64,000 nucleotides of DNA, taken from an uncultured Oscillospiraceae bacterium (GTDB lineage Bacteria > Bacillota > Clostridia > Oscillospirales > Oscillospiraceae). The stretch lies in NCBI GenBank assembly GCA_964406615.1, contig CAYOSI010000008.1, forward strand, positions 4,031 to 68,030, written 5' to 3'. The notes under the pieces were generated by a model. That model was not told where the DNA came from. It saw only the letters and a program-made list of their open reading frames with translations, and did not search any database. Numbering within the stretch: position 1 is the first letter of the stretch; each line of letters starts with the position of its first letter. This document shows, piece by piece, positions 37,341-59,625 of the stretch. The translations under genes and the position numbers were made by a program.

Positions 37341-39041
37341 ATGAAGCGAATTCTTGCGATCGTCATGATGGCTGCGCTGATGCTGACCCTGTTCGTGGGC
37401 TGCGGCGGCGGAGCGGACACACAGGCTCCCGCGGCGGCCGAGGAAGCGGCCGCCCCGGCGGAAGCGGCTGCTCCCGCGGAAGCGGAGGCTCCGGCAGCAA
37501 ATATCGAGGAGAGCGACACCGTCGCTGTCGCGGCGACGGACGGATACCTCCGGGATAAGGTCACGGTCGCCATCAGCGGCGACGGCAAGACCTTCGATCC
37601 CTTCACCCCGCAGAGCAGCTGGGGCAAGGTGAAGTTCCCGCTGTTCCAGCTTTTGGCGGAGGTGGACTCCAAGGGTGAGATCCGTTACGTCATCCTGAAG
37701 TCCTTTACCGAGATCGATGACATGACCTACGAAGGCGAGATCTGGGACTGCGTGTACGATACCGCCGGCAACAACATCACCGCGGACGACGTGGTCTGGA
37801 GCATCCAAAAGTTCATCGACAGCGGCAACAAGGGCGGCGTCAACCGGCTGGAGAGCCTGGAAGTCTCCGGCGACTATACCTTTATCTGGCACTGCAGCGA
37901 GCCCTTCGGCCCCGGCGATATGGGGAAGAACCTGTCCAACTGCTCCATCGTCTGCCGCGAAACCTATGAGGCCATGGGGCCTGACGGCATGGCCTCCGAG
38001 CCCATCTGCACCGGCCCTTATATGCTGAAAGAATACGTCCCCGGCTCCTCTGTGACCCTTGTTGCCAACGAGGATTACTGGATGAAAAACATCCCCGATG
38101 AGCAGTGGCTTGCGGATAACAACTACGCGACAGGCTTCCAGAATGTCCGGGAGATCGAGTATCAGATCATCCAGGACGCCGGCTCCCGGGCCATCGCTCT
38201 GGAGATGGGCACGGTGGACGCGGTGGACTCCATGAATGCCGCCGATGTGGACTATTTCATCCAGAATCCCGACCTGGGCGTTATCCCCGTGGAGCTGCCC
38301 CAGGATCCCCCCGTGGCCTTCTACTTTGACTGCAACGAGGCCTCCCCCTGCTCTGATGTGAAGCTCCGTCAGGCCATCTGCTACGCCATTGATAATGCCA
38401 CGGTCGCGGAGGGGCTGGAGTTCCCCGCGCAGCCTGCCTACGGCATGCAGCCCCGCATGTACGACGCCCCCGAAAGCTGGACCACCGGCGAGGGCCGCGA
38501 CTATTACACCTATAATGTGGAGACCGCCAAGGCGCTTCTGGCGGAGTCCTCCTACAACGGCGAGACCCTGACCATCATGTACATGAACCAGCCTGCCATC
38601 ACCGACGCGGTCATTCTGGTGCAGGATGCGCTCAAGCAGGTAGGGATCACGGTGGATCTTCTCCCGGCGGACATCTCCGTTCTCAACGACTACAAGCTTG
38701 ACTTTACCAAATGGGACATGATGTTCGATATCATGGGCGGCGGCAACTATCTGAGCACCACGCTCAAGAAGTTCTGGACCGAGGACAGCAAGTCCATGAT
38801 GAACGGCCTGCAGGTCACCGGCATCGTGGATGAGCATCTGGATGATCTGTTCGTGGCGCTCAAAGATAACACGAATGACGAGACCATTTCCGCGTGGGAT
38901 GAATACTTCACCGACGAGATGTGCTATGGCTATGCCCTGTGTCTGTACTCGAACCAGACCGCCTGTCAGGCCGACGTGAACTGCGTCATCACCGGCGCAC
39001 AGAGGAACATCACGCCGCAAGCCTTTACCTTCGCGGACTAA
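37341..39041 (+). CDS. ABC substrate-binding lipoprotein, peptide/nickel (family 5) type
   Basis: Lipobox LFVGC followed by an Ala/Pro/Glu linker. 566 aa with SBP_bac_5-like sequence. RBS TAGGAGAG. Confidence 0.88.
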   Translation: MKRILAIVMMAALMLTLFVGCGGGADTQAPAAAEEAAAPAEAAAPAEAEAPAANIEESDTVAVAATDGYLRDKVTVAISGDGKTFDPFTPQSSWGKVKFPLFQLLAEVDSKGEIRYVILKSFTEIDDMTYEGEIWDCVYDTAGNNITADDVVWSIQKFIDSGNKGGVNRLESLEVSGDYTFIWHCSEPFGPGDMGKNLSNCSIVCRETYEAMGPDGMASEPICTGPYMLKEYVPGSSVTLVANEDYWMKNIPDEQWLADNNYATGFQNVREIEYQIIQDAGSRAIALEMGTVDAVDSMNAADVDYFIQNPDLGVIPVELPQDPPVAFYFDCNEASPCSDVKLRQAICYAIDNATVAEGLEFPAQPAYGMQPRMYDAPESWTTGEGRDYYTYNVETAKALLAESSYNGETLTIMYMNQPAITDAVILVQDALKQVGITVDLLPADISVLNDYKLDFTKWDMMFDIMGGGNYLSTTLKKFWTEDSKSMMNGLQVTGIVDEHLDDLFVALKDNTNDETISAWDEYFTDEMCYGYALCLYSNQTACQADVNCVITGAQRNITPQAFTFAD

Positions 39042-39125
39042 ACCGAAACACAAAGCAACCGACTTACATCCAAGGCGGCGCGGTACTGCCGCGCCGTCCT
39101 TTTGTTACCATGAAAGGACGCCGAT

Positions 39126-40094
39126 ATGGGCCGATATATAATCAAACGTCTGCTCATCACGATCCCGATCGTGATCTGTGTGGCGGTCATTATCTTCACC
39201 CTGCTGTATTTTACGCCGGGCGATCCGGCGCAGATGATCCTGGGCACTTCGGCCACTACGGAGGAGCTTGCCTCCTACCGGGAGTATCTGGGCCTGAACC
39301 GACCGTTCCATGTGCAGCTGGGTGAGTATCTCTATAATCTGTTTGTCAAATTTGATCTCGGCAACTCATGGGTGTCCAAGATGGACATCATGAGCGAGAT
39401 CCGTACCCGTCTGCCCCGGACCTTTGCCATCAGTATGTACAGCATCCTGGCCGGAGCGGCCTGCGGCATTCCCCTAGGGGTCATGGCGGCGGTCCATCAG
39501 GACGGCAAGGCGGACAAATTCGTTCTCGTCATGTCCAGCGTGATGCACTGCATCCCGGGCTATGTGATCGCCATGGTGCTGGTGGTGGTGTTCGCTCTGA
39601 AGCTCAAATGGCTGCCGGCCTATGGCATCGGAGGGTTCAAGTATTACATCCTGCCATGTCTGTGCATCCTGCTGGGCAGCTTCTCCGGCATGGCGCGCAG
39701 TATGCGCTCCAGTATGCTGGAGATCATCCGCTCCGATTTCGTGATGGCGGCGAGAGCGCAGGGCTTTTCCAAAAACATCGTGAACTACCGGCACGCCCTG
39801 CCGAACGCGCTCATCCCCATCATCACCCAGATCGGCGCACAGTTCGCCGGCGCGCTAGGCGGCACGATGATCCTGGAGACCATCTTCTCCATCCCCGGCA
39901 TGGGCCTCTATATCACCGGAGCGATCAACAGCCGGGACATCCCCATCGTGACGAGCTCCGTGATCTTCCTTGCCATCTGGTTCTGCCTCGTGATGCTGGC
40001 GGTGGACATCGTATACGCGCTGATCGATCCCCGGATCAAGGCGCAGTATGAAGCCCAGGGGAAATCCCATAGAAGGAGGCAGGCGGCAAAATGA
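39126..40094 (+). CDS. ABC permease (OppB/DppB/NikB-like)
   Basis: The N-terminus YIIKRLLITIPIVI and the EAA-type loop are typical. Confidence 0.9.
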   Translation: MGRYIIKRLLITIPIVICVAVIIFTLLYFTPGDPAQMILGTSATTEELASYREYLGLNRPFHVQLGEYLYNLFVKFDLGNSWVSKMDIMSEIRTRLPRTFAISMYSILAGAACGIPLGVMAAVHQDGKADKFVLVMSSVMHCIPGYVIAMVLVVVFALKLKWLPAYGIGGFKYYILPCLCILLGSFSGMARSMRSSMLEIIRSDFVMAARAQGFSKNIVNYRHALPNALIPIITQIGAQFAGALGGTMILETIFSIPGMGLYITGAINSRDIPIVTSSVIFLAIWFCLVMLAVDIVYALIDPRIKAQYEAQGKSHRRRQAAK

Positions 40095-41002
40095 ATGAAG
40101 TGACGGGAAAAAACAGCATCGACACAGGGCTTCGCCTGGAGGACGATATCCGGCTGAAAAAGGAAACGAACTTCAAGCAGATGCTCAAGCGGCTGGCCAA
40201 AAACAAGCTGGCTGTCACCGGCGGCATCGTATTTCTGATCCTGTGCCTCATTTCCCTGTGCGCGCCTCTGATCGCGCCTTATGACTATTCCGCCATCGAT
40301 CCCGCCAACAAATATCTGCGGCCCTGCGCCGAGCATTTGTTCGGCACGGATCAGTACGGACGGGACATCTTTTCCCGCGTCATCTACGGTGGGCGCTGGA
40401 GCCTGACGCTGGGCCTCGCATCCACGCTGGTCAGCACGTTCCTGGGCGTCATCGTCGGCTCTGTTGCGGGCTATTTTGGAGGTAAGGTGGACATGGTCAT
40501 CATGCGCTTTATCGACATCGTCCAGTGCATCCCTGGCATCCTGCTCACGATCTGTATCTCCGTGGTCCTGGGCTCCGGCGTGGTCAACACCGTCATTGCC
40601 ATGTCCTTCGGCAGTATATGGGGCACGGCGCGCATGCTGCGAGGACAAATCCTCATGGTGCGCGAGAGCGAATATGTGGAGGCGGCGAGGGCCACCAATG
40701 TCAGCTCCTTCCGCACCATTGTGAAATACGTTCTGCCGAACTCCATCCAGCAGACTATCATCGGCGCCTGCATGAGCATCGGCGGCATGATCACCCAGAT
40801 CTCCGGCCTGAGCTTTCTCGGTCTCGGCGTGCAGCCGCCTCTGCCGGAATGGGGCGCCATGCTGAGCGACGGCCGGAACTTCCTTCGATATTATCCCAAT
40901 ATGCTGCTAGCTCCTTGCATCATGATCGCATTGACGATCCTCTCCATCAGCCTCTTTGGCGACGGGCTGCGTGACGCCATGGACCCCCGTATGAAAGATT
41001 GA
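40091..41002 (+). CDS. ABC permease (OppC/DppC/NikC-like)
   Basis: Contains HLFGTDQYGRDIFSRVIYG. ATGA overlap with the upstream gene. Confidence 0.9.
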   Translation: MNEVTGKNSIDTGLRLEDDIRLKKETNFKQMLKRLAKNKLAVTGGIVFLILCLISLCAPLIAPYDYSAIDPANKYLRPCAEHLFGTDQYGRDIFSRVIYGGRWSLTLGLASTLVSTFLGVIVGSVAGYFGGKVDMVIMRFIDIVQCIPGILLTICISVVLGSGVVNTVIAMSFGSIWGTARMLRGQILMVRESEYVEAARATNVSSFRTIVKYVLPNSIQQTIIGACMSIGGMITQISGLSFLGLGVQPPLPEWGAMLSDGRNFLRYYPNMLLAPCIMIALTILSISLFGDGLRDAMDPRMKD

Positions 41003-41014
41003 GGTATTTGTGCT

Positions 41015-42145
41015 ATGGATGAAACAATAATCACAGAAAAAACCTCCGAGGAAAAACGGGGACATCACGACCATCATGAGAGGCGTCTCCACAAAAAGGA
41101 GCATCATGGCGAGAAGCACGGCGAGCATCCCCATCATCGTCATGACGGCACGTTTCTGCGGGTGAAAAACCTGTGGGTGGAATATACCGCGGGCAAGCGC
41201 ATCGTTCACGCGGTGAACGGCATTTCCTTCGACATCAAGCGCGGTGAGTCTCTGGGTGTGGTGGGCGAGTCCGGCTGCGGAAAGAGCACTATCGCGAAAG
41301 CGCTTTTGCGCATTCTGCCGGATCACGGCGCCCGGATTGCCGGGGGCGAGATCTGGTTCAAGGGGCAAAATCTGGTAGAGCTGCCCGAGGCGGATATGGA
41401 GCATATCCGCGGCGCGCAGATCTCCATGATATTCCAGGATCCCATGACCGCTCTGAACCCGGTCAAGCGCATTCTGGATCAGGTGGCGTCGGTCATCCGG
41501 CTCCATACCCCCGGTATGAGCAAAAAGGAGTCCGAGGCGGCCGCCATTGATATGCTGAAGACCGTTGGCATCAAGGAAGACCGCGTGCGGGAGTACCCCC
41601 ACCAGTTTTCCGGCGGCATGCAGCAGCGTGTAGAGGTGGCCATCGGCCTCTCCTGCCACCCGGATCTGCTTCTGGCCGACGAGCCCACCACGGCCCTGGA
41701 CGTGACAATTCAGGCGCAGGTGCTCGACCTCATCCGCGATCTGATGGAAAAGCAGAACACGACGCTTCTGCTCATCACCCATAACCTGGGTATCGTGGCG
41801 GAGATGTGCGATTATGTTGCGGTGGTCTACGGCGGCGAGATCGTGGAGTACGGCTCCAAGCGGGAAGTATTCAAAAACCCCAGCCATCCCTATACCATCG
41901 GCCTGTTCGGCGCGGTACCCAGCATGCAGTCCGCCGGGCAGCGTCTGAAGCCCATCGACGGCGTCATGCCCGATCCCAGCGATCTGCCCGCGGGCTGCAA
42001 GTTCCACACCCGCTGCCCCTATGCCACACCGGCGTGCAGCGAAGGGAACGTCCCTGTGGTCGATCTGGGCGGAACCCACCGCTGCCAGTGCCATAACATC
42101 GAGGCGGTCCGCGCCGCGCAGGAGAAGGAGGAGGTGCAGGTATGA
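41015..42145 (+). CDS. ABC ATPase (OppD/NikD-like) with ~45-aa His-rich N-terminal extension
   Basis: [17 protein letters not shown] and [12 protein letters not shown]. The N-terminus reads [42 protein letters not shown] lies 9 nt upstream, and there is no alternative downstream start. Confidence 0.88.
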
Positions 42146-43110
42146 GCACGCTGCTGGAACTGAAAGGCCTCAAACGCTATTTTGATACGCCCAAGGGCAA
42201 GCTCCACGCGGTGGACGATATCAACATGTCCTTCGAGGAAGGCACGACCATGGGCGTGGTGGGCGAATCCGGCTGCGGCAAATCCACCCTGGCCCGGACG
42301 ATCATCCACCTGCAGAATCCCACAGACGGGCAAATTCTGTATAAAGGCGAGGATATCACCTACCCCAATCGGAAGCAGCTGAAACGGCTCCGGGAGGAGA
42401 TGCAGATCATCTTCCAGGACCCCTACAGCACCCTGAACCCCCGCTATACGGTGGAGGATACACTCAAAGAGCCGCTGGTCCTGTCCGGACAGTATGAAAA
42501 GGCATCCCTCGATAAGCAGATCACAAAGCTCATGGACATGATCGGCATTTCCGGGCGGCTGCGCATGGCGTATCCCCATGAGCTTTCCGGCGGCCGCCGT
42601 CAGCGCGTGGGCATCGGGCGGGCGCTGGCCATGAACCCCAAGTTCATTGCCTGCGACGAGCCGGTGGCGAGTCTCGACGTGTCCATCCAGGCGCAGATCA
42701 TTAATCTGCTGGAGGACCTGCAGAAGGACTTTGGCCTGACGTACATGTTTGTGACCCACGACCTGAGCGTGGTGCGGCATATCTCCCACAACATCAGCGT
42801 CATGTATCTGGGGCAGCTCGTGGAAACGAGCCCCTCGGAGGAGCTGTTTTCCAACCCGCTGCACCCCTACACGAAGGCGCTGATCTCCGCGATCCCGTCC
42901 ACGGATATCGACGCTCCCCGAAAGCGCATTCGTCTCCAGGGGGAGCTGATGAGCCCCATCAATCCCGAACCCGGCTGCCGTTTCGCTCCGCGATGCCCGT
43001 ATGCGGCGGAAGCATGCTCTCAGCCGCAGAAGCTGGAGGAGATGGCTCCCGGCCATTTCGTTGCCTGCTGCCGGGCAAAGGAACTGAATGAAAACGATCA
43101 GGAGAACTGA
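42142..43110 (+). CDS. ABC ATPase (OppF/NikE-like)
   Basis: [17 protein letters not shown] and FIACDEPVASLD. ATGA overlap with the upstream gene. Confidence 0.9.
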   Translation: MSTLLELKGLKRYFDTPKGKLHAVDDINMSFEEGTTMGVVGESGCGKSTLARTIIHLQNPTDGQILYKGEDITYPNRKQLKRLREEMQIIFQDPYSTLNPRYTVEDTLKEPLVLSGQYEKASLDKQITKLMDMIGISGRLRMAYPHELSGGRRQRVGIGRALAMNPKFIACDEPVASLDVSIQAQIINLLEDLQKDFGLTYMFVTHDLSVVRHISHNISVMYLGQLVETSPSEELFSNPLHPYTKALISAIPSTDIDAPRKRIRLQGELMSPINPEPGCRFAPRCPYAAEACSQPQKLEEMAPGHFVACCRAKELNENDQEN

Positions 43111-43113
43111 ACT

Positions 43114-45666
43114 ATGAACGGACAAATCTTGAAAGCCGGCGCGGGCAAAGCGGAGATCGTATTCCCCGCCGATATGTTTCCCACCGATAAGCTGTACGGA
43201 GTGCACGATGCTCCCTGCGCTCGCATCCTTGTATTTGACGGCGGTCTGCGGGCCGCGATCGTGAGTCTGGAACTGGTGAACGCTCCGGACGAGTGCATCG
43301 AAAAAGCCCGGAACATCGTCCGGAATACGACCGATACTCCCTATGAGAATGTTTGGGTCCATGTGACCCATGCCATCACCACGCCTCATGCTCCCGGTGG
43401 ACCGGGCGGTCCCAAGCCCGGCGGTCCCAAGCCGCCCATGGGCGGAGGCTTTAAGCCCGACCCCGACGCGCCGAGAAAGCGGAAGCTCTTTGTCGCCGCC
43501 ATCGAGAGCGCGGTAACAGAGGCGGCGGATCAGGCGGCGGCGTCCTTCCGGGAAGCGGTCTTCGGCGTTGGCACAGGGGACTGTCTCGTCAATGTGAACC
43601 GGGACGAGGAGACCCCCTTCGGCTGGTGGGTCGCTCAGAACCCTGCGGAGATATCCAACAAGACCATGACCGTCCTCCGCTTCGACGGCGCGGACGGGAA
43701 ACCCATCGGCGCGCTGGTGAGCTATGGTCTCAAGCCCTGCGCGATCGACATGGCCGGACAGAGTTCGGAGGATCGCATGGTCTCGGCGGATGTGCCGGGC
43801 TATGCCTGCCATATGGCGGAGGATACCTTCGGCGCTCCCTGCCTGTTTTGCATGAGCGCGGCGGGCGATCAGGTCCCCCGGGAACAGGCGTTTTACGACC
43901 GCATCACGGAGAGCGGCGAGGTGGAACGCGTCGATCTTGGCGTGGAAAAGGGCTATGAGATCGTGGAGCGTCTCGGAGCGGAAATGGGAGCGGACATCCT
44001 TCGCATTCTGGATTCTGTCTCCGACAAGACGGGCGAGGCCGTTACCGACCATGCCTCGGGCAGTATCCTGTGCCAGCAGAAGAGCCGCAGTCCCATCCCC
44101 ATGGTGCCGCAGAAGGAGCTGGAATTCAAAAAAGAGGGCGAGGACGTCCTGGGCGCGGAGGCGATCCGACTGGGCGATGTTGCTCTTGTCGCCATCAAGC
44201 CGGAGACGAATACCCGGACAGAGCTGGAGCTGAAAGAGGCTTCTCCGTTTGCTCACACGCTGCTTATCTCCATGGTGAACGGCGGCATGAAGTACATGCC
44301 CGACGCCTCTGCCTATGAGCGGATCACATGGGAAGCCCAAAGCTCCATGCTCATGCCCGGAACGGCGGAAAAGTGGGTAAGGAGAGTGACCGATATGCTG
44401 AAGGATCTGAAAGAGGAGAAAAAAGCGCCCAAGATCACCGTGGTCGCGGAACCATTCTCCGACGGCCAGCGCATCACAAAGGCGATCCTTACCTTCGAGA
44501 CGGAAGTTCCCAATGTGGATGAAATCGAGGTCGTGGACCGTACCATAACCGATCGGAAGGTGGAAGGAAACACGGTGACCCTCACCCTGTCTATGGACGA
44601 TAAAGCGGCCAAGATCATTCCGGATTTTGAGTTCAAGCCCGGCGGACCCTTTGGAAACGGCGGCCCTGGTGGTCCTGGTGGTCCTGGTGGCCCCGGTGGT
44701 CCTGGTGGTCCTGGCGGTCCCGGTGGTCCCGGCGGGCCCGGAGGTCCCGGCGGTCCTGGTGGTCCCGGCAGACGCGGACCCACGCGCATGGGGAAAAAGC
44801 GCCGCCCGATCGCCGTGGAGGTCAAACTCCCGGGGTATGACGCGCCCATCGCGTCCACCAAGGCCATCCAGCCCGTGATCGACGATTTCGTGCAGGGCGA
44901 ATATAAGGGGATGCTCTACAACCTGTTCGTCCCCAAAGACTATGACCCGGCGAAGAAGTATCCGCTGGTGCTGTTCATTCCCGACGCGGGACCCAATGGC
45001 GACGATCCGCTGCTGGCTCTGGCGCAGGGCATCGGCGGTACCTGCTGGGCCGATCCTGCAGAGCAGGCAAAGCATCCCTGCTTTGTCCTGGCGATCCAGG
45101 TTCCCTCCGGCGTGCATCTGACGGACGACGATTATACCGTCTCCGCGGAATTTGACATCATCATGGAGCTCTTTGAGAAGATCGTGTCGGAGTACAGCAT
45201 CGACCGCAACCGGCTGTACAACACCGGGCAGTCCCAGGGCTGCATGGCGTCCTGCGAGATGGATATTCGCTGGCCGGATCTGTTCGCGGCGTCCATGCTG
45301 ATTGCCGGTCACTGGGATGTTCAGAAAATGGTGAAGCTTACCAAGAAAAAGCTGCTGTTTGGCTTGTCGGAAGGCGGTTTGAAGGAATATCCCAACTTCA
45401 ACGAGATCACCGACGGACTGGAGGCCCAGGGCGTAAAGGTGGCCCGGATCCGGCTGAATTTCCGGGATGGATGGGAAGTGAACGACGCCAAGGTTCGGGA
45501 GGGCATCGGCGACGCGCAGGTGGTCTATATCATCTTTGATGAGGCAACGGCTTTCCCTGACGACGGCAAAGAACGCGTCAAGATCCTGCACCACCAGCGC
45601 GGCTGGGAGCTGACCTATTGCCTGGAATCCGCCCGGGATTGGATATTCGCGCAGTCGAAGGAGTAA
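43114..45666 (+). CDS. cytoplasmic fusion protein: ceramidase-like N-terminal domain + Ig-like domain + (Gly-Gly-Pro)12 hinge + alpha/beta-hydrolase (COG4099-type)
   Basis: No signal peptide. KAGAGKAEIVFP...GVHDAPCARILVF resembles the neutral/alkaline ceramidase N-terminus. The C-terminus has YNLFVPKDYDPAKKYPLVLFIPDAG and GQSQGC. AGGAGAA RBS, and the gene starts 3 nt after the oppF-like stop. Confidence 0.8.
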   Translation: MNGQILKAGAGKAEIVFPADMFPTDKLYGVHDAPCARILVFDGGLRAAIVSLELVNAPDECIEKARNIVRNTTDTPYENVWVHVTHAITTPHAPGGPGGPKPGGPKPPMGGGFKPDPDAPRKRKLFVAAIESAVTEAADQAAASFREAVFGVGTGDCLVNVNRDEETPFGWWVAQNPAEISNKTMTVLRFDGADGKPIGALVSYGLKPCAIDMAGQSSEDRMVSADVPGYACHMAEDTFGAPCLFCMSAAGDQVPREQAFYDRITESGEVERVDLGVEKGYEIVERLGAEMGADILRILDSVSDKTGEAVTDHASGSILCQQKSRSPIPMVPQKELEFKKEGEDVLGAEAIRLGDVALVAIKPETNTRTELELKEASPFAHTLLISMVNGGMKYMPDASAYERITWEAQSSMLMPGTAEKWVRRVTDMLKDLKEEKKAPKITVVAEPFSDGQRITKAILTFETEVPNVDEIEVVDRTITDRKVEGNTVTLTLSMDDKAAKIIPDFEFKPGGPFGNGGPGGPGGPGGPGGPGGPGGPGGPGGPGGPGGPGGPGRRGPTRMGKKRRPIAVEVKLPGYDAPIASTKAIQPVIDDFVQGEYKGMLYNLFVPKDYDPAKKYPLVLFIPDAGPNGDDPLLALAQGIGGTCWADPAEQAKHPCFVLAIQVPSGVHLTDDDYTVSAEFDIIMELFEKIVSEYSIDRNRLYNTGQSQGCMASCEMDIRWPDLFAASMLIAGHWDVQKMVKLTKKKLLFGLSEGGLKEYPNFNEITDGLEAQGVKVARIRLNFRDGWEVNDAKVREGIGDAQVVYIIFDEATAFPDDGKERVKILHHQRGWELTYCLESARDWIFAQSKE
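44659..44769 (+). repeat. in-frame 9-bp microsatellite-like repeat encoding (GGP)12-G
   Basis: GGY GGY CCY repeated 12 times with synonymous variation. Confidence 0.9.
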
Positions 45667-45677
45667 ACACAAGAAAA

Positions 45678-45704
45678 AGCGGAGAGTCCCTCTCCGCTTT
45701 TGTT
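45678..45704 (+). terminator. intrinsic terminator after the fusion hydrolase gene
   Basis: AGCGGAGAG-TCCC-TCTCCGCT followed by TTTGTT. Confidence 0.6.
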
Positions 45705-45723
45705 CCATGAAGGAGATCGCATT

Positions 45724-46551
45724 ATGAAAATATCGGAGATCATCGAAAAGCTGCGCCAGTTTCATCCGCAGATCGATGAGGAGAAAACCTGCGACATCGT
45801 GAAATACGGCGATCCGGATAAGGAATGCACCGGCATCGTGACCTGCTGCTTTGCGTCCTCGGATGTGATCCGTGAAGCCGCCCGCCTCGGCGCGAATTTC
45901 ATCATCACCCACGAACCGCTGTTCTGGACCCACGAGGACGAGACGGACTGGCTCGCGGACAGCGCCATTTTCGCCGCAAAAAAGAAGCTGCTGGATGATG
46001 CGGGCATCGTTGTCTGGAGAGATCACGACCATATCCACGGCGGGAAGCCCAGCAATAATCCGCCTGCGATCGACGGCATCTACTACGGTATCATGAAGGA
46101 GCTTGGATGGGACGAGTATAAGCTCGACTATCCCAACAAGCCGCTTGTCTTCCAGCTCCCGGAGCGGGACGCCACCGAACTGGGGCTGGAGCTGAAGGAG
46201 AAGCTGAACCTGAACGGTGTCCGGATCGTGGGCGATCCGCACGCCAGAGTGTCCCGGGTGTTCTTCTGTGAACACATCAAGGATCACGACTGGAAGGAAA
46301 AGGAGAAGATCCGCAAGACCGACACCGAAGGGATCGATGCGGTCATTCCGCTGGAGATGATCGACTGGTCTTTGGCGGCGTTTGTGCGGGATTCGTGCCA
46401 GCTGGGCCGGCCGCGGATCATGTACAACGTGGGGCATTTCAACTTCGAGGAGCTGGGCATGAAATACATGGTGCGGTACCTGCCTCAGATCGTGGGGGAT
46501 GTCCCGGTGCATTATGTGCCGTCCGGCGATTCCTTTAACTTTATTCTGTAA
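45724..46551 (+). CDS. NIF3-like (dinuclear metal centre, GTP cyclohydrolase 1 type 2 homolog) protein
   Basis: MKISEIIEKL...GIVTCCFASSDVIREAARLGANFIITHEPLFW. ATG at 45724 lies 8 nt after AAGGAG. Confidence 0.75.
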   Translation: MKISEIIEKLRQFHPQIDEEKTCDIVKYGDPDKECTGIVTCCFASSDVIREAARLGANFIITHEPLFWTHEDETDWLADSAIFAAKKKLLDDAGIVVWRDHDHIHGGKPSNNPPAIDGIYYGIMKELGWDEYKLDYPNKPLVFQLPERDATELGLELKEKLNLNGVRIVGDPHARVSRVFFCEHIKDHDWKEKEKIRKTDTEGIDAVIPLEMIDWSLAAFVRDSCQLGRPRIMYNVGHFNFEELGMKYMVRYLPQIVGDVPVHYVPSGDSFNFIL

Positions 46552-46564
46552 GAAGGCGAGTTCC

Positions 46565-53099: not shown

Positions 53100-53864
53100 A
53101 TGAAGAAAGTGATTTCCCTGTGCCTTGCGCTACTGATGATCGCGGCTCTCACTGCCTGCGGCGCGAAGGACGAAGTTGTTGTTGAAGCCCCGCTGGCTGA
53201 AGAAGCGCCTGCAGCTGCTCCCGCAGAACCCGCCGCCCCGGCGGCTCCCGCGGAGGAAGCCGTTCCTGCGGCTCCCGAGGCGCCTGTCGTGGAGCCTGCG
53301 GCACCCGCGTCCAGTGAGCCGGATATGCGCTCGGATGTCGGCGCTGTGACGACGTGGAAGAACTATATCAAGGGCTTTGTGGCGAGCAACGCCCCCAGCG
53401 CGGCGGAGGCCGAGAGCATCTCTCAGCAGATCGATGACGCTGCCACGGTGGATGAGGTGGAGTCGATCTTCGAGGTCACCGTCCTGTTCGACAATCTTGG
53501 CGTGCTGCGCTTTGACGATTGGATGGCCCAGAACGGCGGAGCTTCCAGCGAGACGGGCAGCGGTCCTGTACCGCCCGCGGAACCTCTGACCGGCGGCGCG
53601 AGCAAGGAATCGACGAATACCGCTCATGGCGGGACGCCGGGTGCGACCTCGGAGGAGGATTACAAGGCCTATCTGAAGGCGTGGCTCGCTGCGGACCGTG
53701 AAGTTGAGACGCACCTGACGGACGCGATCATTGACGGCTTCATCGAGAAGATCGACGCCGGGAAATACGACGAGTCCCCGGTGGACATGCTCTTCAACGG
53801 CATGATGGAGACCGGCGTAGCCATGACCTACGAGGAATTTGTCGCCGCGAACGGCGTGTATTGA
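53100..53864 (+). CDS. lipoprotein of unknown function with Ala/Pro-rich linker
   Basis: Lipobox ALTAC, then an (A/P/E)-rich tract, followed by a globular C-terminal region. Confidence 0.7.
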   Translation: MKKVISLCLALLMIAALTACGAKDEVVVEAPLAEEAPAAAPAEPAAPAAPAEEAVPAAPEAPVVEPAAPASSEPDMRSDVGAVTTWKNYIKGFVASNAPSAAEAESISQQIDDAATVDEVESIFEVTVLFDNLGVLRFDDWMAQNGGASSETGSGPVPPAEPLTGGASKESTNTAHGGTPGATSEEDYKAYLKAWLAADREVETHLTDAIIDGFIEKIDAGKYDESPVDMLFNGMMETGVAMTYEEFVAANGVY

Positions 53865-53880
53865 TTGTTTCGCGATTCGG

Positions 53881-53910: not shown

Positions 53911-53934
53911 GGTATGGTAAAGAAAAGGAGAAAA

Positions 53935-54747
53935 ATGATGAAAAGAATGATTGCATTGGTGTTGGCCCTCGCTCTGTGCGCCGCTCTCGGAACGGCGGCT
54001 GCTGCATCTGGAGAGGCATCCTTCAGCGAGCCGATCACAGTAACGGAAATCAACGAGATGGTCGCGGCTGCGGGAAATGCAAGTGCCCTTCATCTGGTAT
54101 ACAGTCAGATCGCAAATGCCTATAATGCCGGCTCTATGCTGGATGAGAACGGAGAGGAGATGCCTGCCGACCCTGCGAAGGCGGCGGAATACTTCCTTCT
54201 GGCGGGTGCGACCGGCGACGGATACGATTATGTCGAGGCAGGCCAGCTCTACGAGCAGGGGCTCGTGACCGGCGAACCGGATTACACCGCGGCGATGGAT
54301 TGCTATATCCTGGCGGCAGGAGCGAGCAATTCCTCCTGCAAGGGAGTGCGCAACATCGGACAGTGGTATGACAATGGAAACGATTTCGTGGAACGCGATC
54401 CCCGAATCGCTGCGGCATGGTATGTCTGGGCGATCATGCTGGACGACGCTTCCTCCTGCTATTACCTCGGGAATCTATATCAGCAGGGCGACATCACATG
54501 GGACGGGAAGCCGGATTACGCCGCCGCAGCGAAATACTATCAGATGGCCGCGGATAAAAACAATGACAGCGCCACCGGTGTGGCGAAAGCGCTCTACTGG
54601 CTCGGGTACTTCTATGAAAACGGCCTCGGCGTCGATATGAATACCGATATTGCGCTCACTCTCTATGAGCGGGCGGCGGCAGCGGGAGAGGTCAAGCTGG
54701 AGGAACTGTATAACCGGGCGGTCACAGCGGTGGAGCGGCTCGGCTGA
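53935..54747 (+). CDS. secreted Sel1-like repeat (TPR-like) protein
   Basis: ATG at 53935 follows AAAGGAG. It has a signal peptide and repeated A..(Y/W)...A...G...A...LG..Y..G units. Confidence 0.75.
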   Translation: MMKRMIALVLALALCAALGTAAAASGEASFSEPITVTEINEMVAAAGNASALHLVYSQIANAYNAGSMLDENGEEMPADPAKAAEYFLLAGATGDGYDYVEAGQLYEQGLVTGEPDYTAAMDCYILAAGASNSSCKGVRNIGQWYDNGNDFVERDPRIAAAWYVWAIMLDDASSCYYLGNLYQQGDITWDGKPDYAAAAKYYQMAADKNNDSATGVAKALYWLGYFYENGLGVDMNTDIALTLYERAAAAGEVKLEELYNRAVTAVERLG

Positions 54748-54811
54748 GATAAGTAAATCAAAACTTCGCGTTCATTCATTAAAAGCATCAACACGAAGAA
54801 GGAGCAACACT

Positions 54812-56107
54812 ATGAAAATCGTAACAAGAATTATCCTGTCTCTGATTATGGCGTCTGCCTTGATAATGTCTGTTGCAGTAAACGCCTCCGCAGCAGAACC
54901 GGCTGGGGACCATATCATATCCGTGACGGCGATTACCCAGGTTTTCGGAGACGGAATGAAGGCTTCGGCGGCGGCGATCGAATATGACGCCGATATCGCC
55001 CCCGATTCGGTCAGCGCGGAGGACTATGCGATCGACGGATATGAGGTTATCGGTGCGTTTGTGAACGGCGAGGCCGCGCTGGCGGAAGAAAGCGGTGAGG
55101 GCCCGTTCGTCATCGTTGTGCTGGACACCTCGACGGTGCAGGGCTCGAATTACGTCGGCATGGGCGGCGGAGCATCCGGAGGGAGAGGGAAAAGAGCCTC
55201 CGGCGAGATGGGCGGTTCGTCCGAGATCACGCTCTCTGTTGTTCAAGCCGGCGAGGTCAGTACAGCAAAAGGGCAGGTCTATTCTGGAAACAATACGGAA
55301 TATGTAACGGCTGCCGAGGAGAATATCAATCTGGTTTTCGATGATTTTCAGCAGCTGGTGTTTGAGAGCGAGTACGGCGATTTTATGTACAACCTCTATG
55401 TTCCCGCGGAGTATGACGAGAGCGAAAGCTATCCCATGGTGCTGTTTATGCCGGACGCGACCGGCAACGGCTCCAATCCGGTAAAGACGCTGATCCAGGG
55501 CAATGGCGCGATCATCTGGGCACAACCGGAAAACCAAGAGGAAAATACCTGCTTTGTCCTTGCACCCCAGTTTGAAGACACGGCCTACGATGTGGAAATG
55601 ACCTTCGCGCTGATCGACGAGCTTCTGGATGAGTACAGCATCGATCCGAATCGCCTCTATGTTACCGGGCAGTCTGCCGGGACCATCCGTGCCATCACGA
55701 TGATGATCGAGCAGCCGGATCGTTTCGCGGCAGCTATGCTGGTAGCAGGTCAGGCGGAAAACGGTTATGAGAATCGTATCTCCGAATTGTCCGGTCAAAC
55801 CATTTGGATGATTGCGTCCACCGGCGACGTGCGGGCGCTGCCCGGTATGACTGCCATTATGGAGGCTGTGGCGGAAAAAGGAACGGAGACCACCGAAGGC
55901 GCGTGGAGTGCCAAGCTTCCCATCGCGGAGCAGAACGCCAAGGCGGAGGTAATGACTGAGGCGGGCACAAGCTTCTATTTCACAGTGCTGGATGATGTGC
56001 TCCCTGACGGCGCGGAGGATAGTGATGCTACCTGGCACATGAACACCTGGCGCGTCGCGTATGAAATTGACGCCATTCGCGCCTGGGTTTTTGAACAGAG
56101 TAAATAG
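54812..56107 (+). CDS. secreted esterase: Ig-like N-terminal domain + Gly-rich hinge + alpha/beta-hydrolase (COG4099-type)
   Basis: ATG at 54812 follows GAAGGAG. It has a signal peptide ...VNASA, then YNLYVPAEYDESESYPMVLFMPDATG and GQSAG. Confidence 0.8.
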   Translation: MKIVTRIILSLIMASALIMSVAVNASAAEPAGDHIISVTAITQVFGDGMKASAAAIEYDADIAPDSVSAEDYAIDGYEVIGAFVNGEAALAEESGEGPFVIVVLDTSTVQGSNYVGMGGGASGGRGKRASGEMGGSSEITLSVVQAGEVSTAKGQVYSGNNTEYVTAAEENINLVFDDFQQLVFESEYGDFMYNLYVPAEYDESESYPMVLFMPDATGNGSNPVKTLIQGNGAIIWAQPENQEENTCFVLAPQFEDTAYDVEMTFALIDELLDEYSIDPNRLYVTGQSAGTIRAITMMIEQPDRFAAAMLVAGQAENGYENRISELSGQTIWMIASTGDVRALPGMTAIMEAVAEKGTETTEGAWSAKLPIAEQNAKAEVMTEAGTSFYFTVLDDVLPDGAEDSDATWHMNTWRVAYEIDAIRAWVFEQSK

Positions 56108-56252
56108 CATTACGTTAAGCGCCTGATTTGATCGAATAGATTGTGCGATTAACGTATGCAGATCAAATCTCATAACATGAATTATCATATAGGGATTTGA
56201 GCACGTATACGATGGCAGACAGCCGATACAAATATCAGAAAGAGGAACTGCA

Positions 56253-58067
56253 ATGGCACACAAAAAGTTCACCGCTATTCTTCTGACCCTTATCATGCTT
56301 TCGGGGCTGACGCCGACAGCCCTTGCTTCAGGGGAGGTAATGCGCGATGCGTCTGACTATGTGGGCAGCATCGACAATGCGAATATCGACCCAACGCTGT
56401 ATCTCGATTACTCCGCAGGCATTGAGGCGGGCGTATATCACTGGATCCTGAGTGAAGACGGCTCTTACTACACGCTGACTGCCGTGAACGAGGAGGGCAA
56501 CGCTGCATCGGCGGTTGAGGCGGAGACAACTGTTGACGCGCCCATGGAGGAATCCACAGAGACTGGGAGCGGATCCGGTGAAGCCAGTCGAGGCTCCGGC
56601 GAGGCCAGCAGAGGAGCGGCTTATGACGGCGTTTATATGAGTGCCAATGTCACAAATCCTTCGTATCAAACCATGCTTATTTATGTTCCCGCAGCATATT
56701 TGACAATTGATGAAGACGGGGTTGTGACCGGTATCGATCATGATGCTCAGGCAGGAAACTATACGGCGGATACAGCGCCTATTATATATGCCAATGAGTG
56801 CGTTGGGTGGCGTTCCAGCACGCCTCGCTCGTGCGATACATCATACATCAGGCAGGGAATGATCTATGTGGCTGCTGGCGCGCGAAGCCGAGGAGCAACG
56901 GATGAGAATGGTATTCCTTCCGGCAAAGCGCCAACACAGGTGGTGGATCTCAAGGCCGGCGTGATTGAGCTCAGAGCGAACGCGGACGTGATCCCTGGCA
57001 ATAAAGACCGCGTCGTTTCCATCGGGACCTCCGGCGGTGGGGAGATGAGCTCTATTTTCGGCGCCAGCGGCAATATGCCGGAGTATTTCGAATACATGTA
57101 CGAATCCGGTGTGCTGGGTGTGACAAAAAACGCAGATGGTACTTATACCAGCGCATACCCGGACAACGTTTTTGCGGCGCAGTGCTTTTGCCCCATTGCG
57201 GACATCGAGGACGCCGACATTGCTTATGCCTGGTGGTGGGTCGATCTGGCGGATGACGGAGGGGTATACAACAGCACAATAACAGACTTTGAGCGCCGAC
57301 TGCAGGAGCTGGAGGCTGACGCTTTCGTGGAGTATCTGAACAGCCTCGGCCTGAGCGATACGGATGGGAACACCCTGACGCTGGACAGCCTGCGTTCCGG
57401 CAGCTTCTATGACGCGATATTACAGAATCTTACTGATGCTCTCAATGCCATGGTCGAGGCTGGAAGCATTGATCCTGAGGCCGCTTATTCCGATCACACA
57501 AATTGGCTCACGCAGGACGCAGATGGTGTGTGGCATATCACGGATCTGCGAGGATTTATGATCGGAACAGGGCTTGTGAATAATCGCAATAAGGCGATAC
57601 CCGGCTTTGATAAGATGGACAAATCCGCAGAGAACAATGCTTTTGGGACCGCAGATGAGGAAGCCGTCCATTACTCCATCAGCGTCGCGCAGATCCTCTC
57701 CGACAATTACGAGGAACTCTCCAAACTGGAAGGCTTCAACGCTAAGCAGGTGGATAATTACATCGATGAGGCGCTGACAGGCAGTGAGGCGCAGGATATT
57801 GCGGAGCAGGTCAATCTCATGAACGCCACGGAGATCCTGCTGGGCTATGACGGGCTTTCCGCCGTGGATCCCGCGCAGCATTGGCGCGTGCGCAGCGGCA
57901 CCGCAGATCAGCACACCTCCTTCACCATCGGTTATAATCTCTGTCTCGCGGCGCAATCGCGCGGCCTGGATGCCGACTACCATCTTGTATGGAATATGGG
58001 CCATGGCTCCAACGAGGGCTCTTCCACCGGCACCTTTATCGACTGGGTCAACGAGATCTGCGCATAA
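56253..58067 (+). CDS. secreted tannase-like alpha/beta hydrolase (paralog of 49621..51456)
   Basis: Signal peptide ...PTALA/SGE. SIGTSGGGEMSSIFGASGN...AQCFCPIADIEDADIAYAWWW. The Ser codon is at 57030-57032. Confidence 0.65.
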   Translation: MAHKKFTAILLTLIMLSGLTPTALASGEVMRDASDYVGSIDNANIDPTLYLDYSAGIEAGVYHWILSEDGSYYTLTAVNEEGNAASAVEAETTVDAPMEESTETGSGSGEASRGSGEASRGAAYDGVYMSANVTNPSYQTMLIYVPAAYLTIDEDGVVTGIDHDAQAGNYTADTAPIIYANECVGWRSSTPRSCDTSYIRQGMIYVAAGARSRGATDENGIPSGKAPTQVVDLKAGVIELRANADVIPGNKDRVVSIGTSGGGEMSSIFGASGNMPEYFEYMYESGVLGVTKNADGTYTSAYPDNVFAAQCFCPIADIEDADIAYAWWWVDLADDGGVYNSTITDFERRLQELEADAFVEYLNSLGLSDTDGNTLTLDSLRSGSFYDAILQNLTDALNAMVEAGSIDPEAAYSDHTNWLTQDADGVWHITDLRGFMIGTGLVNNRNKAIPGFDKMDKSAENNAFGTADEEAVHYSISVAQILSDNYEELSKLEGFNAKQVDNYIDEALTGSEAQDIAEQVNLMNATEILLGYDGLSAVDPAQHWRVRSGTADQHTSFTIGYNLCLAAQSRGLDADYHLVWNMGHGSNEGSSTGTFIDWVNEICA

Positions 58068-58080
58068 AAACGAAAGGACC

Positions 58081-58109
58081 TTGCATTCTTCTCCGGCATC
58101 CGATATAAT
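58081..58109 (+). promoter_or_regulatory. sigma-70-like promoter for the DUF2798 gene
   Basis: TTGCAT, a 17-nt spacer, then TATAAT. Confidence 0.5.
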
Positions 58110-58221
58110 GATCGGCGGAAAAGGCAAGACCTTTGGAAACCGGAAATAAGTCGTATGCGGCGTAGTCTGTTTCGTCAGGCTGCGCCGTTTCTTCATACTT
58201 AGTTTTCGGAGGTATCGTAAA

Positions 58222-58746
58222 ATGCCAAAAACCAAAGGACAGGGGATCATGTTCGGTGTCATCATGTCGTATGCCATGGCCATCGGGATGGAGGTGTACA
58301 ACATTGCCATCAAAATGGGCTTCAGCCTGAACATCGGCGGGCTGTCCTCCATGACGAACGCTGTGTTCCCTGCGGCGCTGGTAGAAGCGTCGTACATGGG
58401 TCTGTTTGTGTTCCTGTTCTCCAATCTCTGGGGCAACCGGGCCGGGGCGGCCTTCGCGGCAAAGCACACCGATCCGGAAAAGGACAATCCGTATTTTTGC
58501 CAGCTCATGCGGCAGGCGGGGACGGTGGCGGTCATGTGTCCCACCATGAGTCTCGTGGCCTCGATCCTGTTCAATGTGATTCTGGCGAGGCAGCCGGTGA
58601 CGCAGCTCCCGGCCATCTGGGTGGGGACGGTGTTCAAGAACTTCCCCATGGCGTTTTTCTGGAATATGTTCGCCGCCGCGCCGTTTTCCCGCTGGCTGTT
58701 CAGCCTGGTGTATCGGGAATATCAGGAGACGAAAACAGAGTCATAA
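58222..58746 (+). CDS. DUF2798-like membrane protein
   Basis: MPKTKGQGIMFGVIMSYAMAIGMEVYN... RBS GGAGG. Paralog of 23059..23535 and 58918..59625. Confidence 0.7.
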   Translation: MPKTKGQGIMFGVIMSYAMAIGMEVYNIAIKMGFSLNIGGLSSMTNAVFPAALVEASYMGLFVFLFSNLWGNRAGAAFAAKHTDPEKDNPYFCQLMRQAGTVAVMCPTMSLVASILFNVILARQPVTQLPAIWVGTVFKNFPMAFFWNMFAAAPFSRWLFSLVYREYQETKTES

Positions 58747-58750
58747 CGCC

Positions 58751-58780
58751 TTGACAAATCGCGCAAACGCCCGATATAAT
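58751..58780 (+). promoter_or_regulatory. sigma-70-like promoter for the second DUF2798 gene
   Basis: TTGACA, an 18-nt spacer, then TATAAT. Confidence 0.55.
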
Positions 58781-58917
58781 GTCACGAAAAATCAAATACA
58801 GCTGTGAACGACACATGTAGCGCCCGGCGCGTAAATCTGATTACGGTACACCATGATCGGAGGCGGGGCCGCTGCCTGTGTCGTTTATTGTTTTGAATGA
58901 GAAAGTGAGGAGTTATT

Positions 58918-59625
58918 ATGCCAAGAAATCAGTTTCAACGTATGTTTTTTGCCTTTGTCACCGTGGTCATCACGGTGCACGCCTACGTGTTCTACAGCCT
59001 GTATGTGGTGAACGGGAACACGCTCATGCAAATCACAGGTGCGTCCAGTGTCCTTGGTGCGATCCGCGCCCAAGGCGGCGTGTATATGTTTGGACGGATG
59101 CTGCCCATCTGGGCGGTCATCCTGGTGGAATTCTGCCTAGCCTTCGCACTGGAAAACCTCGTGGGAAGCCCGGCCTCCTTCAAACTCGCCTGCCGGGTGT
59201 TCAATCCTCAGAAGAACCATCCCATGATGTTTGAAACGGCCATCATCTGCGCCACGGTGGGCATCATGTGCCCGGCCATGAGCCTCATCGCCGCGGGGCT
59301 GTACTATCCGTACTATGCCGGGTTCAACCTCTGGACGTTTCTGGCAAACTGGCTGAAGCTGGTGTGCTTCAATTTCCCCTTCGCGTATTTTACCCAACTG
59401 TTCTTCATCCAGCCGGCGGTGCGGACGATCTTCAAGCTGGTGTTCCGCAGGGATATCAAAGCCCGTGCCCGGGAGGCCCGGCAGAAGGAGCAGAGCGGCA
59501 AAAAGCTCATGCCGGAAAACGAGGCGGACGCTGTGGCGGACATCTTCAAGCGGATTGACGAGATCAAGGAGGAACTGCGGGAGGAGATCGTCGAGAGTCT
59601 CATGGAGTCTCGGGATAAGAAATAA
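58918..59625 (+). CDS. DUF2798-like membrane protein with charged C-terminal tail
   Basis: MPRNQFQRMFFAFVTVVITVHAYVFYS... RBS GAGGAG. The C-terminal ~55 aa are Lys/Glu/Arg-rich. Confidence 0.7.
   Translation: MPRNQFQRMFFAFVTVVITVHAYVFYSLYVVNGNTLMQITGASSVLGAIRAQGGVYMFGRMLPIWAVILVEFCLAFALENLVGSPASFKLACRVFNPQKNHPMMFETAIICATVGIMCPAMSLIAAGLYYPYYAGFNLWTFLANWLKLVCFNFPFAYFTQLFFIQPAVRTIFKLVFRRDIKARAREARQKEQSGKKLMPENEADAVADIFKRIDEIKEELREEIVESLMESRDKK

Follow-up and report, generated by a model that had tools for sequence, protein, structure and literature searches.

What compound would a bacterium process with an Opp-type oligomer importer, four cytoplasmic hydrolases and a further set of secreted proteins, all encoded in one run of genes? 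The question is raised by a 22-kb locus at positions 37341-59625 of a 64,000-nucleotide stretch (hereafter the window) from contig CAYOSI010000008.1 of an uncultured Oscillospiraceae bacterium (GenBank assembly GCA_964406615.1). An initial annotation of the window had put the locus forward as a candidate mobile system for the use of ester polymers or polyphenol esters. Our analysis describes it as a substrate-specific catabolic operon, built with parts from known superfamilies and an uncharacterised core enzyme family. We read it tentatively, giving this reading slightly less than an even chance, as an operon for the uptake and breakdown of plant phenolic esters that is carried on a 47-kb mobilizable element.

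Gene content and conservation of the locus

The locus comprises 18 open reading frames (ORFs), all on the plus strand and separated by intergenic gaps of -4 to 171 nt, in agreement with its first description as co-directional with short gaps. Their products make up a full Opp-type importer, four hydrolases located in the cytoplasm, a secreted set of seven proteins and a pair of small membrane proteins (Table 1). Families were assigned by sequence searches of the window proteins against Pfam, NCBIfam and the Protein Data Bank (PDB), and this profile-based annotation left the earlier family calls essentially intact. The solute-binding protein, both permeases and both ATPases exceeded their Pfam cut-offs and the Opp/Dpp/Nik-type architecture is fully represented, as had been claimed. 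A hydrophobicity scan revealed hydrophobic N-terminal segments in the binding protein and the seven secreted proteins and none in the four cytoplasmic hydrolases. The latter had thus been correctly recognised as lacking signal peptides; the seven proteins named as secreted likewise stand, the count of eight having included the binding protein. Start-codon choice was confirmed by agreement with independent gene calls on a metagenome contig of the same strain (L080, sample SRR10165007), which carries an identical carboxylesterase gene and a matching gene order.

The main operon probably spans 37341-58067, since a terminator-like hairpin follows the second tannase gene and a perfect -35/-10 pair was found by consensus scan at 58751-58780, ahead of the last gene; on this reading the genes for the two membrane proteins would lie outside it, as units of their own. 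Consensus scans for hairpins and promoters are weak evidence when taken alone. The two membrane proteins are paralogues. The DUF2798 label given to them is weak: the score of one, 18.2 bits, lies under the cut-off of 23.5, and the second has no match to the model. An antisense shadow ORF of 1528 aa (42019-46605) also runs across the locus. Divergent from the operon lies the gene for an AraC-type regulator with predicted transmembrane segments at residues 40-71 and 285-317 and between them a loop of ~215 aa that is predicted to lie outside, an arrangement that suggests it is probably a membrane-bound one-component sensor. Orthologues of the regulator occupy the equivalent position in 11 loci.

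To place the locus among its relatives we assembled 79 loci, 73 of them distinct (L007-L079, one genome per species) and 6 from metagenomes, and searched all of them with every window protein. Opp permeases were present in 43. The EstA-like esterase was the search criterion and is hence found in all 43 importer-bearing loci; the ceramidase-fold domain accompanies it in 34, the metallo-β-lactamase (MBL) hydrolase in 19, the AraC regulator in 11, the carboxylesterase in 10, the NIF3-like protein in 9 and the MATE efflux pump in 7. With comparison confined to loci that had 6 kb or more on each side and an EstA-like domain of 40% identity or higher, the importer was found in 22 of 25. Hosts of the cassette include Oscillospiraceae, Lachnospiraceae, the cultured Hungatella hathewayi WAL-18680, whose cassette lies at about 720.7-742.0 kb of NZ_JH379027.1, and several Chloroflexota. 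The ceramidase-fold and EstA-like parts are encoded by separate genes in a distant clade, and their fusion in some loci and adjacency in others tie both to one task. OppF is 63-93% identical across loci while the binding protein diverges down to 25-30%, which hints at substrates that are related and not identical.

The secreted half behaves differently from the importer and the cytoplasmic hydrolases. Across the 79 loci the transglutaminase-core protein was found elsewhere once, the Sel1-repeat protein twice, the lipoprotein never and a DUF2798-like protein once, and the half as a whole is confined to the same or closely related organisms (L011, L080 and L094). The red-deer locus L011 has the transglutaminase-core protein, tannase 2 and a DUF2798-like gene behind the cassette and is missing the segment from tannase 1 to the secreted esterase; L094 encodes a 94%-identical tannase 1 in the same gene order; relatives of tannase 1 at 75% and 55% identity stand alone amid unrelated genes. 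The 22 kb is a conserved core with a lineage-specific secreted extension and not one conserved unit. Co-conservation and synteny, which the initial annotation had proposed as a check, therefore hold for the importer and cytoplasmic hydrolases across distant lineages and fail for the secreted half beyond close relatives.

This bears on the comparison with polysaccharide utilisation loci (PULs; the Sus-like systems of Bacteroidota and the ATP-binding cassette (ABC) glycan loci of Gram-positive bacteria), which share with the locus a sensor, secreted pre-digesting enzymes, an importer with a binding lipoprotein and cytoplasmic finishing enzymes. Unlike a PUL, however, the locus has neither SusC/SusD nor carbohydrate-active enzymes among its 18 genes and flanks, ester and amide hydrolases standing in their stead, and here the importer and cytoplasmic half alone are conserved across genomes. 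Because the secreted half is lineage-specific, the PUL-like split between inside and outside enzymes, on which the initial annotation had based its comparison, is a local assembly and not a conserved design.

The ceramidase-fold family and the tannases

The fusion protein encoded behind the importer has ~20 full-length homologues (48-74% identity) from uncultured Oscillospiraceae and Clostridiales, and gave no PF04734 hit above threshold. An AlphaFold2 model of its residues 1-444, made with 57 homologues, had a mean predicted local distance difference test score of 94. Foldseek searches with this model returned significant matches to neutral ceramidases only (2ZWS/2ZXC and 4WGK; probability 1.0, E 6e-27, TM-score 0.71, 16% identity), and a family profile aligned to 2ZWS at 2e-18. 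The zinc ligands of canonical neutral ceramidases (2ZWS, 4WGK), which we take to be His, His, Glu and Tyr, are incompletely represented in the fusion-type family, which retains Glu, Tyr and the first His and has replaced the other His. Distant homologues that are recognised as PF04734 keep both the T-H-x-H pattern and a His at the position of 2ZWS His204; throughout the fusion-type group (~48 members), the second His of T-H-x-H has become Ile, Phe or Leu and the His204 equivalent Lys. New conserved residues have appeared in this group (His92 in all members; His83, Asp212 and Glu370 in nearly all), alongside the retained ceramidase equivalents of Arg, Glu, Tyr, the first His and the GD..P motif.

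How large this family is was shown by an exhaustive search across 1.84 billion representative proteins, which returned at least 256 clusters at 50% identity with E <= 1e-30, and 827 with E <= 1e-10. Members are mostly stand-alone proteins of ~420 aa. Among the best 142 of them His86, His92, Arg163, Asp252, Glu364 and Tyr394 hardly vary, a hydrophobic residue occupies position 88, and position 207 is Gln, Lys or Arg and never His. On these alignments the family is a large, distinct branch of the ceramidase fold with a remodelled metal site, uncharacterised as far as the literature that we found goes; a search for publications on bacterial PF04734 relatives yielded nothing relevant. Moreover, the fusion protein differs from neutral ceramidases (2ZWS, 4WGK) in being cytoplasmic, fused to an esterase and devoid of the ceramidase C-terminal domain. 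The name ceramidase, which the initial annotation had used with the qualifier '-like', is unjustified for its N-terminal domain. The secreted ceramidase-fold protein 2 shows a further pattern, T-L-S-H, and retains the His204 equivalent.

The C-terminal third of the fusion protein matches Thermotoga maritima EstA (3DOH) at 1.6e-27. Both this part and the secreted esterase share with EstA an Ig-like domain followed by an alpha/beta-hydrolase with a G-x-S-x-G motif (GQSQG); unlike EstA, the versions in the locus are fused to a ceramidase fold or paired with Sel1 repeats, inside an importer operon. We know of no natural substrate for T. maritima EstA. In H. hathewayi (L046, 10004-11947) an EstA_Ig_like esterase without a signal peptide is fused to C-terminal Sel1 repeats, which accounts for the position of a Sel1 gene ahead of the secreted esterase in the window and implies that the two products would act together. 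The linker of the fusion protein, (PGG)n, is encoded by 11 overlapping copies of a 9-nt period (44638-44786); similar Gly/Pro linkers occur in its homologues, and shorter Gly/Pro-rich stretches in the MBL hydrolase and the carboxylesterase.

The two secreted tannases, Tan1 and Tan2, match solved bacterial tannases in the PDB at 1e-35 to 1e-42. Residue roles are known for the Lactiplantibacillus plantarum enzyme (catalytic triad and galloyl binding; PMC4233993), and in its numbering Tan1 has the triad Ser163/Asp419/His451 together with the galloyl-binding residues Lys343, Glu357 and Asp421. Tan2 has the triad, Lys343 and Glu357, and His in place of Asp421, a change that recurs in its 79%-identical orthologue in the red-deer gut genome L011. 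Like the tannases of L. plantarum (TanA/TanB), Clostridium butyricum and Fusobacterium, to which they are homologous (4J0C, 3WA6, 6YQ4, 7Q6Y), both thus keep the triad and the galloyl-contacting Lys and Glu. They resemble subtype A tannases in being secreted and ~600 aa long. Subtype A enzymes replace the catalytic Asp by Asn (PMC11571031), whereas Tan1 and Tan2 keep it as subtype B does and score higher on the subtype B model, so that neither subtype fits cleanly. Tan1 and Tan2 are very probably galloyl-ester hydrolases. Known tannase genes, in contrast, have not been described within an Opp-type importer/multi-hydrolase operon, and L. plantarum has a gallate decarboxylase, which is lacking here.

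Nature of the substrate

In the scheme that we favour, 37341-58067 would constitute a single catabolic operon, inducible and probably activated by the AraC-type sensor encoded divergently from it. Its first layer, an old and widely shared cassette, would import a small oligomeric substrate through the binding lipoprotein and the Opp permease/ATPase set, and the fusion protein, the MBL hydrolase, the NIF3-like protein and the carboxylesterase would dismantle it bond by bond in the cytoplasm. The second layer, the lineage-specific secreted set downstream, would act extracellularly and pre-digest the substrate where it is bound or part of something larger. The most likely substrate class would be hydrolysable tannins of the galloyl type, together with related conjugates of hydroxybenzoyl or hydroxycinnamoyl groups. 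The phenolic acids released might then be reduced, decarboxylated or exported by an FrdA-like redox pair, the MATE pump and MarR-controlled ABC exporters, and in other genomes by Amidohydro_2 proteins, the whole set being cargo of an integrative mobilizable element (IME).

This scheme draws on recurrent neighbours of the cassette. In 8 other loci, which come from several lineages (L007, L011, L015, L032, L046, L047, L048 and L071), a tannase homologue is encoded no more than 10 kb from the EstA-like gene, and seven of these tannases keep the six key residues, that of L011 having His for Asp421. In H. hathewayi (L046) and L071 the tannase gene follows the cassette directly and its product has no signal peptide, implying that a galloyl-type ester gets into the cytoplasm. 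The gene order in H. hathewayi is AraC (cupin type), binding protein, OppBCDF, MBL, EstA-like/Sel1 fusion, Amidohydro_2, tannase, and an Amidohydro_2 gene is part of the cassette in 6 loci, H. hathewayi and five with the same position. The Amidohydro_2 family includes non-oxidative aromatic-acid decarboxylases and lactonases. Homologues of the flavoprotein of the redox pair are 65-70% identical in L008, L018, L038, L039 and L043, and those of its oxidoreductase partner, 49-56% identical, adjoin the flavoprotein in the same five loci and in L019. The pair sits inside the cassette operon in L008, between the MBL and carboxylesterase genes, and homologues of it adjoin the cassette in L018, L019, L038, L039 and L043, from which we conclude that, despite its position 9 kb upstream in the window, the pair belongs with the locus in function. 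It could reduce a released unsaturated or quinoid acid. Longer versions of the oxidoreductase (~850 aa, for example in L018) have an extra ODP/flavodiiron-like N-terminal domain. Many of the genomes were obtained from the guts of deer, goat, reindeer and rabbit. Together, the tannases, Amidohydro_2, the redox pair, the MATE pump and these herbivore sources favour plant phenolic esters, without proving them.

Several observations weigh against this reading. A tannase lies within 10 kb in just 5 of the 43 importer-bearing loci, so that the substrate of the cassette itself may be another one or a wider class. Both tannases miss the NCBIfam equivalog cut-offs (237 and 256 bits against 300 for tannase_B; 178 and 253 against 550 for tannase_A), so that they are homologues and not assured equivalogs. 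The ceramidase fold points to an amide bond and not an ester. Among solved structures the binding protein is without a close relative, the nearest being opine, peptide and nickel binders at E 1e-17 or weaker, and searching the sequences of this protein, the MBL hydrolase and ceramidase-fold protein 2 against solved structures was uninformative about specificity. No gallate decarboxylase (UbiD/LpdC-type) or phloroglucinol-pathway genes were found within the window. Gene content, folds, residue conservation, synteny and the borders of the element are what the data show; from these we infer the phenolic-ester substrate, the sequence of steps, the regulation and present-day mobility.

A different use of the same parts would be the uptake and breakdown of peptide-like natural products held together by amide and ester bonds (depsipeptides, lipopeptides or acylated peptides). 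Import of the peptide would fall to the Opp system and removal of an N-acyl group to the ceramidase-fold enzyme; the esterases and MBL hydrolase would open ester or lactone bonds, and the tannases would be an unrelated local addition, in keeping with their absence from most cassette loci. The importer has all the hallmarks of the peptide/nickel ABC family, the sole structural relatives of the fusion's N-terminal domain are N-acyl amidases (the neutral ceramidases), and the ceramidase-fold and EstA-like parts are fused or adjacent in most loci, suggesting two bond types in one substrate. However, the conserved set is without a peptidase and its recurrent neighbours are tannases, Amidohydro_2, an FrdA-like reductase and MATE pumps, not peptide-processing enzymes; the family-wide alteration of the ceramidase metal site, moreover, means that amidase chemistry cannot be assumed. 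We therefore consider this explanation unlikely.

Distinctly less probable is that the substrate consists of aliphatic polyester oligomers, derived from cutin, suberin, polyhydroxyalkanoate (PHA) or synthetic polyesters such as poly(butylene adipate-co-terephthalate) (PBAT), which secreted esterases would depolymerise and cytoplasmic esterases would finish after import. The EstA-like domains do match models of the PHA-depolymerase type (NF050058 at 45-63 bits, and TIGR01840) and an esterase of the polyhydroxybutyrate-depolymerase family (8DAJ), yet weakly, the PHA-model scores falling far under the cut-offs of 150 and 108. The type-B carboxylesterase belongs to the p-nitrobenzyl esterase group, a member of which from Clostridium hathewayi reportedly hydrolyses PBAT, although a literature search on the name of the esterase turned up no paper. 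Neither a cutinase nor a lipase family was found, and tannases with an intact galloyl pocket, Amidohydro_2 and the reductase pair would be left unexplained. Among the substrates that the initial annotation had considered, hydrolysable tannins and phenolic esters thus gain indirect support, and synthetic polyesters and complex lipids do not.

It is very unlikely that the system imports metal-polyphenol complexes for the recovery of iron or another metal, in the manner of a xenosiderophore, with the hydrolases and the reductase pair releasing the metal inside. Galloyl and catechol groups chelate iron, and the best NCBIfam equivalog match of the binding protein is to a solute-binding protein of nickel/metallophore type, a very weak one (62.7 bits against a cut-off of 600). 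An N-terminal extension of ~45 residues in OppD (41015-41150), rich in His, Asp, Glu and Lys and possibly metal-binding, is conserved in the close clade, whose OppD orthologues have 6-12 His in their first 80 residues. There is also a precedent in Akkermansia, which a 2025 paper reports to use polyphenols as xenosiderophores (PMC12552655). However, the distant clade retains the cassette without the His-rich tail, and the regulator found is an AraC-type sensor, no iron- or metal-responsive one having been found. That the locus is a chance neighbourhood of unrelated housekeeping hydrolases beside an ordinary oligopeptide transporter is scarcely credible: every family is common on its own and the secreted genes are not co-conserved beyond close relatives, but the idea is contradicted by a core that is syntenic in about 40 loci across phyla, by fusions that bind partners (ceramidase-fold/EstA-like and EstA-like/Sel1) and by reading frames that overlap or nearly abut.

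The probable 47-kb mobilizable element and its cargo

We think it likely, though not firmly so, that the phenolic-ester candidate locus forms the right-hand 22 kb of a ~47.2-kb IME (12.8-59.97 kb) inserted in the 5' end of a low-molecular-weight (LMW) protein-tyrosine-phosphatase gene. The best local alignment of the attL region in the window is the attR-like repeat, with a score of 47 against a mean of 18.1 (sd 2.8) and a next best of 28. Within the window the arm-type motif GGTGTAAAARTGGTGTA occurs only beside these two repeats (0.01 matches expected by chance), and the ends are mirrored, core to arm on the left and arm to core on the right, as attL and attR would predict. These att-like repeats and arm-type sites, with the integrase, excisionase and relaxase genes, bound the element and support the suggestion that the locus is mobile. 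In another metagenome (L081) a 49%-identical integrase adjoins a phosphatase gene with an identical first 30 nt, so that this integrase family appears to target the site. The 30-nt start of the severed copy is also identical in 8 metagenome contigs of other species, human gut included, the remainder of whose phosphatase genes is only 60-78% identical.

The element shares features with Tn916-family integrases and the small IMEs of Firmicutes, namely a Tn916-type integrase with an N-terminal DNA-binding domain, Xis, Mob_Pre, imperfect direct repeats and arm repeats, and profile scans of 12.8-60 kb found no family of conjugation machinery or type IV secretion. It differs from them in its length of ~47 kb, in carrying ~40 kb of metabolic and efflux cargo and in targeting the 5' end of a protein-coding phosphatase gene, for which it supplies a replacement 5' end. 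Some 47 kb is very large against typical IME sizes. An extra 13-nt arm-type match at 19544, on the border between mobility module and cargo, suggests that the element arose by the joining of a mobility module of 6.7 kb to 40 kb of cargo. A tandem model of two elements, with an att site at ~19.6 kb, was rejected, as that position has just the 13-nt arm-type match and no phosphatase remnant.

Against an IME stands that no empty integration site, circular junction or second copy was found; a scan of metagenome DNA for an empty site returned 8 contigs of other species that share merely the 30-nt 5' end of the phosphatase gene. No exact matches to the fusion protein, the flanking ORFs or the phosphatase were on record, two of the queries having used longest-ORF starts and one of these being a GC shadow. 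Neither the locus nor the mobility module yielded plasmid relatives, and within 10 kb of the other fetched loci no integrase was found, except for a weak match in L031. The flanks, moreover, contrast in composition, with a GC content of 0.40-0.45 at 60-64 kb against 0.62 on the left, so that several elements may be stacked at the site. On the left, 2-12.8 kb is ordinary chromosome, where third-position GC and Pfam place argH, argG and genes for an FAD protein, a sodium:alanine symporter, a YeiH-type protein and the LMW phosphatase on the minus strand; by the same two measures long plus-strand ORFs there were rejected as shadows of these genes. On the right, 60000-64000 holds a minus-strand operon for an extracytoplasmic function (ECF) sigma factor, a 253-aa protein, an ABC ATPase and a 437-aa membrane protein, and looks like a separate foreign block abutting attR. 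At the far left of the window (158-2032) lies the gene for a protein of 624 aa whose repeats are choline-binding (cell-wall-binding); the H. hathewayi cassette is likewise flanked by proteins with similar repeats (L046, 17559-20539), probably by coincidence.

The rest of the cargo lies between the mobility module and the sensor gene. Its esterase, DUF2798-like protein, MarR regulators, ABC exporter and MATE pump would make up a typical response to toxic aromatics. Three weakly DUF2798-like membrane proteins, one here and two at the end of the locus, are all on the element and each adjoins an esterase or tannase gene; these paralogues may be transport or export components.

Table 1. Features of the window by position. 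Numbers after model names or PDB codes are E-values unless given in bits; cut-offs are those of the models.
Feature	Position	Strand	Evidence or remark
LMW protein-tyrosine-phosphatase gene	12342-12815	-	functional copy
attL-like repeat	12780-12815		overlaps 5' end of working phosphatase gene; 31/36 identical to 59938-59973
Three arm-type motifs GGTGTAAAARTGGTGTA	12931-12989	+	inside attL, adjoining int end
Tn916-type tyrosine integrase	13016-14179	-	Phage_integrase 1.6e-37; Integrase_DNA 2.1e-21
Excisionase	14284-14481	-	Tn916-Xis 9e-25; also called in L089
Mob_Pre (MOBV) relaxase	14487-15446	-	PF01076 2.6e-54
DUF5906 primase/helicase-like replication protein	16079-17479	-	PF19263 5.7e-17
Second EstA_Ig_like esterase	21160-23043	-	PF18435 2.8e-11
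Third DUF2798-like membrane protein	23059-23610	-	25% identical to 58222-58746, E 8e-8
FrdA/SdhA-like flavoprotein	23851-25701	-	FAD_binding_2, Succ_DH_flav_C
Rubredoxin-like domain + NAD(P)H oxidoreductase, 764 aa	25713-28007	-	Pyr_redox_2 4.6e-59; flavoprotein partner
MarR regulator	28142-28612	-	divergent from next
MarR regulator	28754-29557	+	divergent from previous
Heterodimeric ABC exporter pair	29617-33175	+	ABC_membrane and ABC_tran in both
MATE efflux pump	33249-34637	-	MatE 3e-54; homologues beside cassette in 7 other loci
AraC-type regulator, probably membrane-bound one-component, 747 aa	34777-37020	-	HTH_18 9.7e-24; divergent from operon
Family-5 solute-binding lipoprotein	37341-39041	+	SBP_bac_5 1.3e-51, 176 bits vs cut-off 32.4; lipobox FVGC
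Hairpin	39074-39098		behind binding-protein gene
OppB-like and OppC-like permeases	39126-40094; 40091-41002	+	BPD_transp_1, one with OppC_N
OppD-like and OppF-like ATPases	41015-42145; 42142-43110	+	ABC_tran and oligo_HPY
Fusion protein, 850 aa, cytoplasmic	43114-45666	+	ceramidase-fold domain (1-440), Ig-like domain, (PGG)n linker, EstA-like serine esterase
NIF3-like protein	45724-46551	+	PF01784 7.7e-14
Glyoxalase-II-like MBL hydrolase	46565-47491	+	Lactamase_B 1.2e-17; 1XM8 4.5e-11
Type-B carboxylesterase	47504-48970	+	COesterase 6.3e-95, 319.5 bits vs cut-off 27; p-nitrobenzyl esterase 1C7J 1.4e-66
Transglutaminase-core protein, secreted	48967-49599	+	PF01841 9.2e-10
Tannase 1 (Tan1), secreted	49621-51456	+	NF041556 237 bits
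Ceramidase-fold protein 2, secreted	51480-53060	+	PF04734 26.4 bits vs cut-off 32.1; 4WGK 0.0085
Ala/Pro-rich lipoprotein	53100-53864	+	no known family
Sel1-repeat protein, secreted	53938-54747	+	Sel1 1.3e-23
EstA_Ig_like esterase, secreted	54812-56107	+	PF18435 4.3e-18; 3DOH 1.1e-26
Tannase 2 (Tan2), secreted	56253-58067	+	NF041556 256 bits
Terminator-like hairpin	58157-58188	+	13-bp stem, after tannase 2; probable main-operon end
Two small membrane proteins	58222-58746; 58918-59625	+	paralogous, 34% identity to each other
Strong terminator-like hairpin	59801-59839	+	17-bp stem
Arm-type motif	59862-59878	+	inside attR, 23 nt past final hairpin of locus
attR-like repeat, 36 nt	59938-59973		truncated phosphatase 5' end; minus strand reads MIKILFVCHG, then stop

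A literature search found no published description of such an importer/multi-hydrolase system, which accords with the initial annotation. It is nonetheless rather doubtful that this is the first recognisable polyphenol-ester utilisation locus, one that joins an importer, a new ceramidase-fold family and an EstA-like esterase in Clostridia of herbivore and human guts and in Chloroflexota, has been expanded by tannases and is spread by a 47-kb element. In the diets of herbivores and humans, hydrolysable tannins and other phenolic esters are major constituents with anti-nutritional and bioactive effects, and how strict anaerobes capture and process them is poorly mapped beyond single tannase genes. 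The cassette points to a large family of ceramidase-fold enzymes whose chemistry is uncharacterised, and H. hathewayi WAL-18680 is a cultured model that carries its core. If the phenolic-ester reading is true, the conserved cassette would be a genetic marker for this trait in gut metagenomes, and if the 47-kb element moves, the trait could spread horizontally among gut Clostridia, which would be relevant to the adaptation of hosts to tannin-rich diets.

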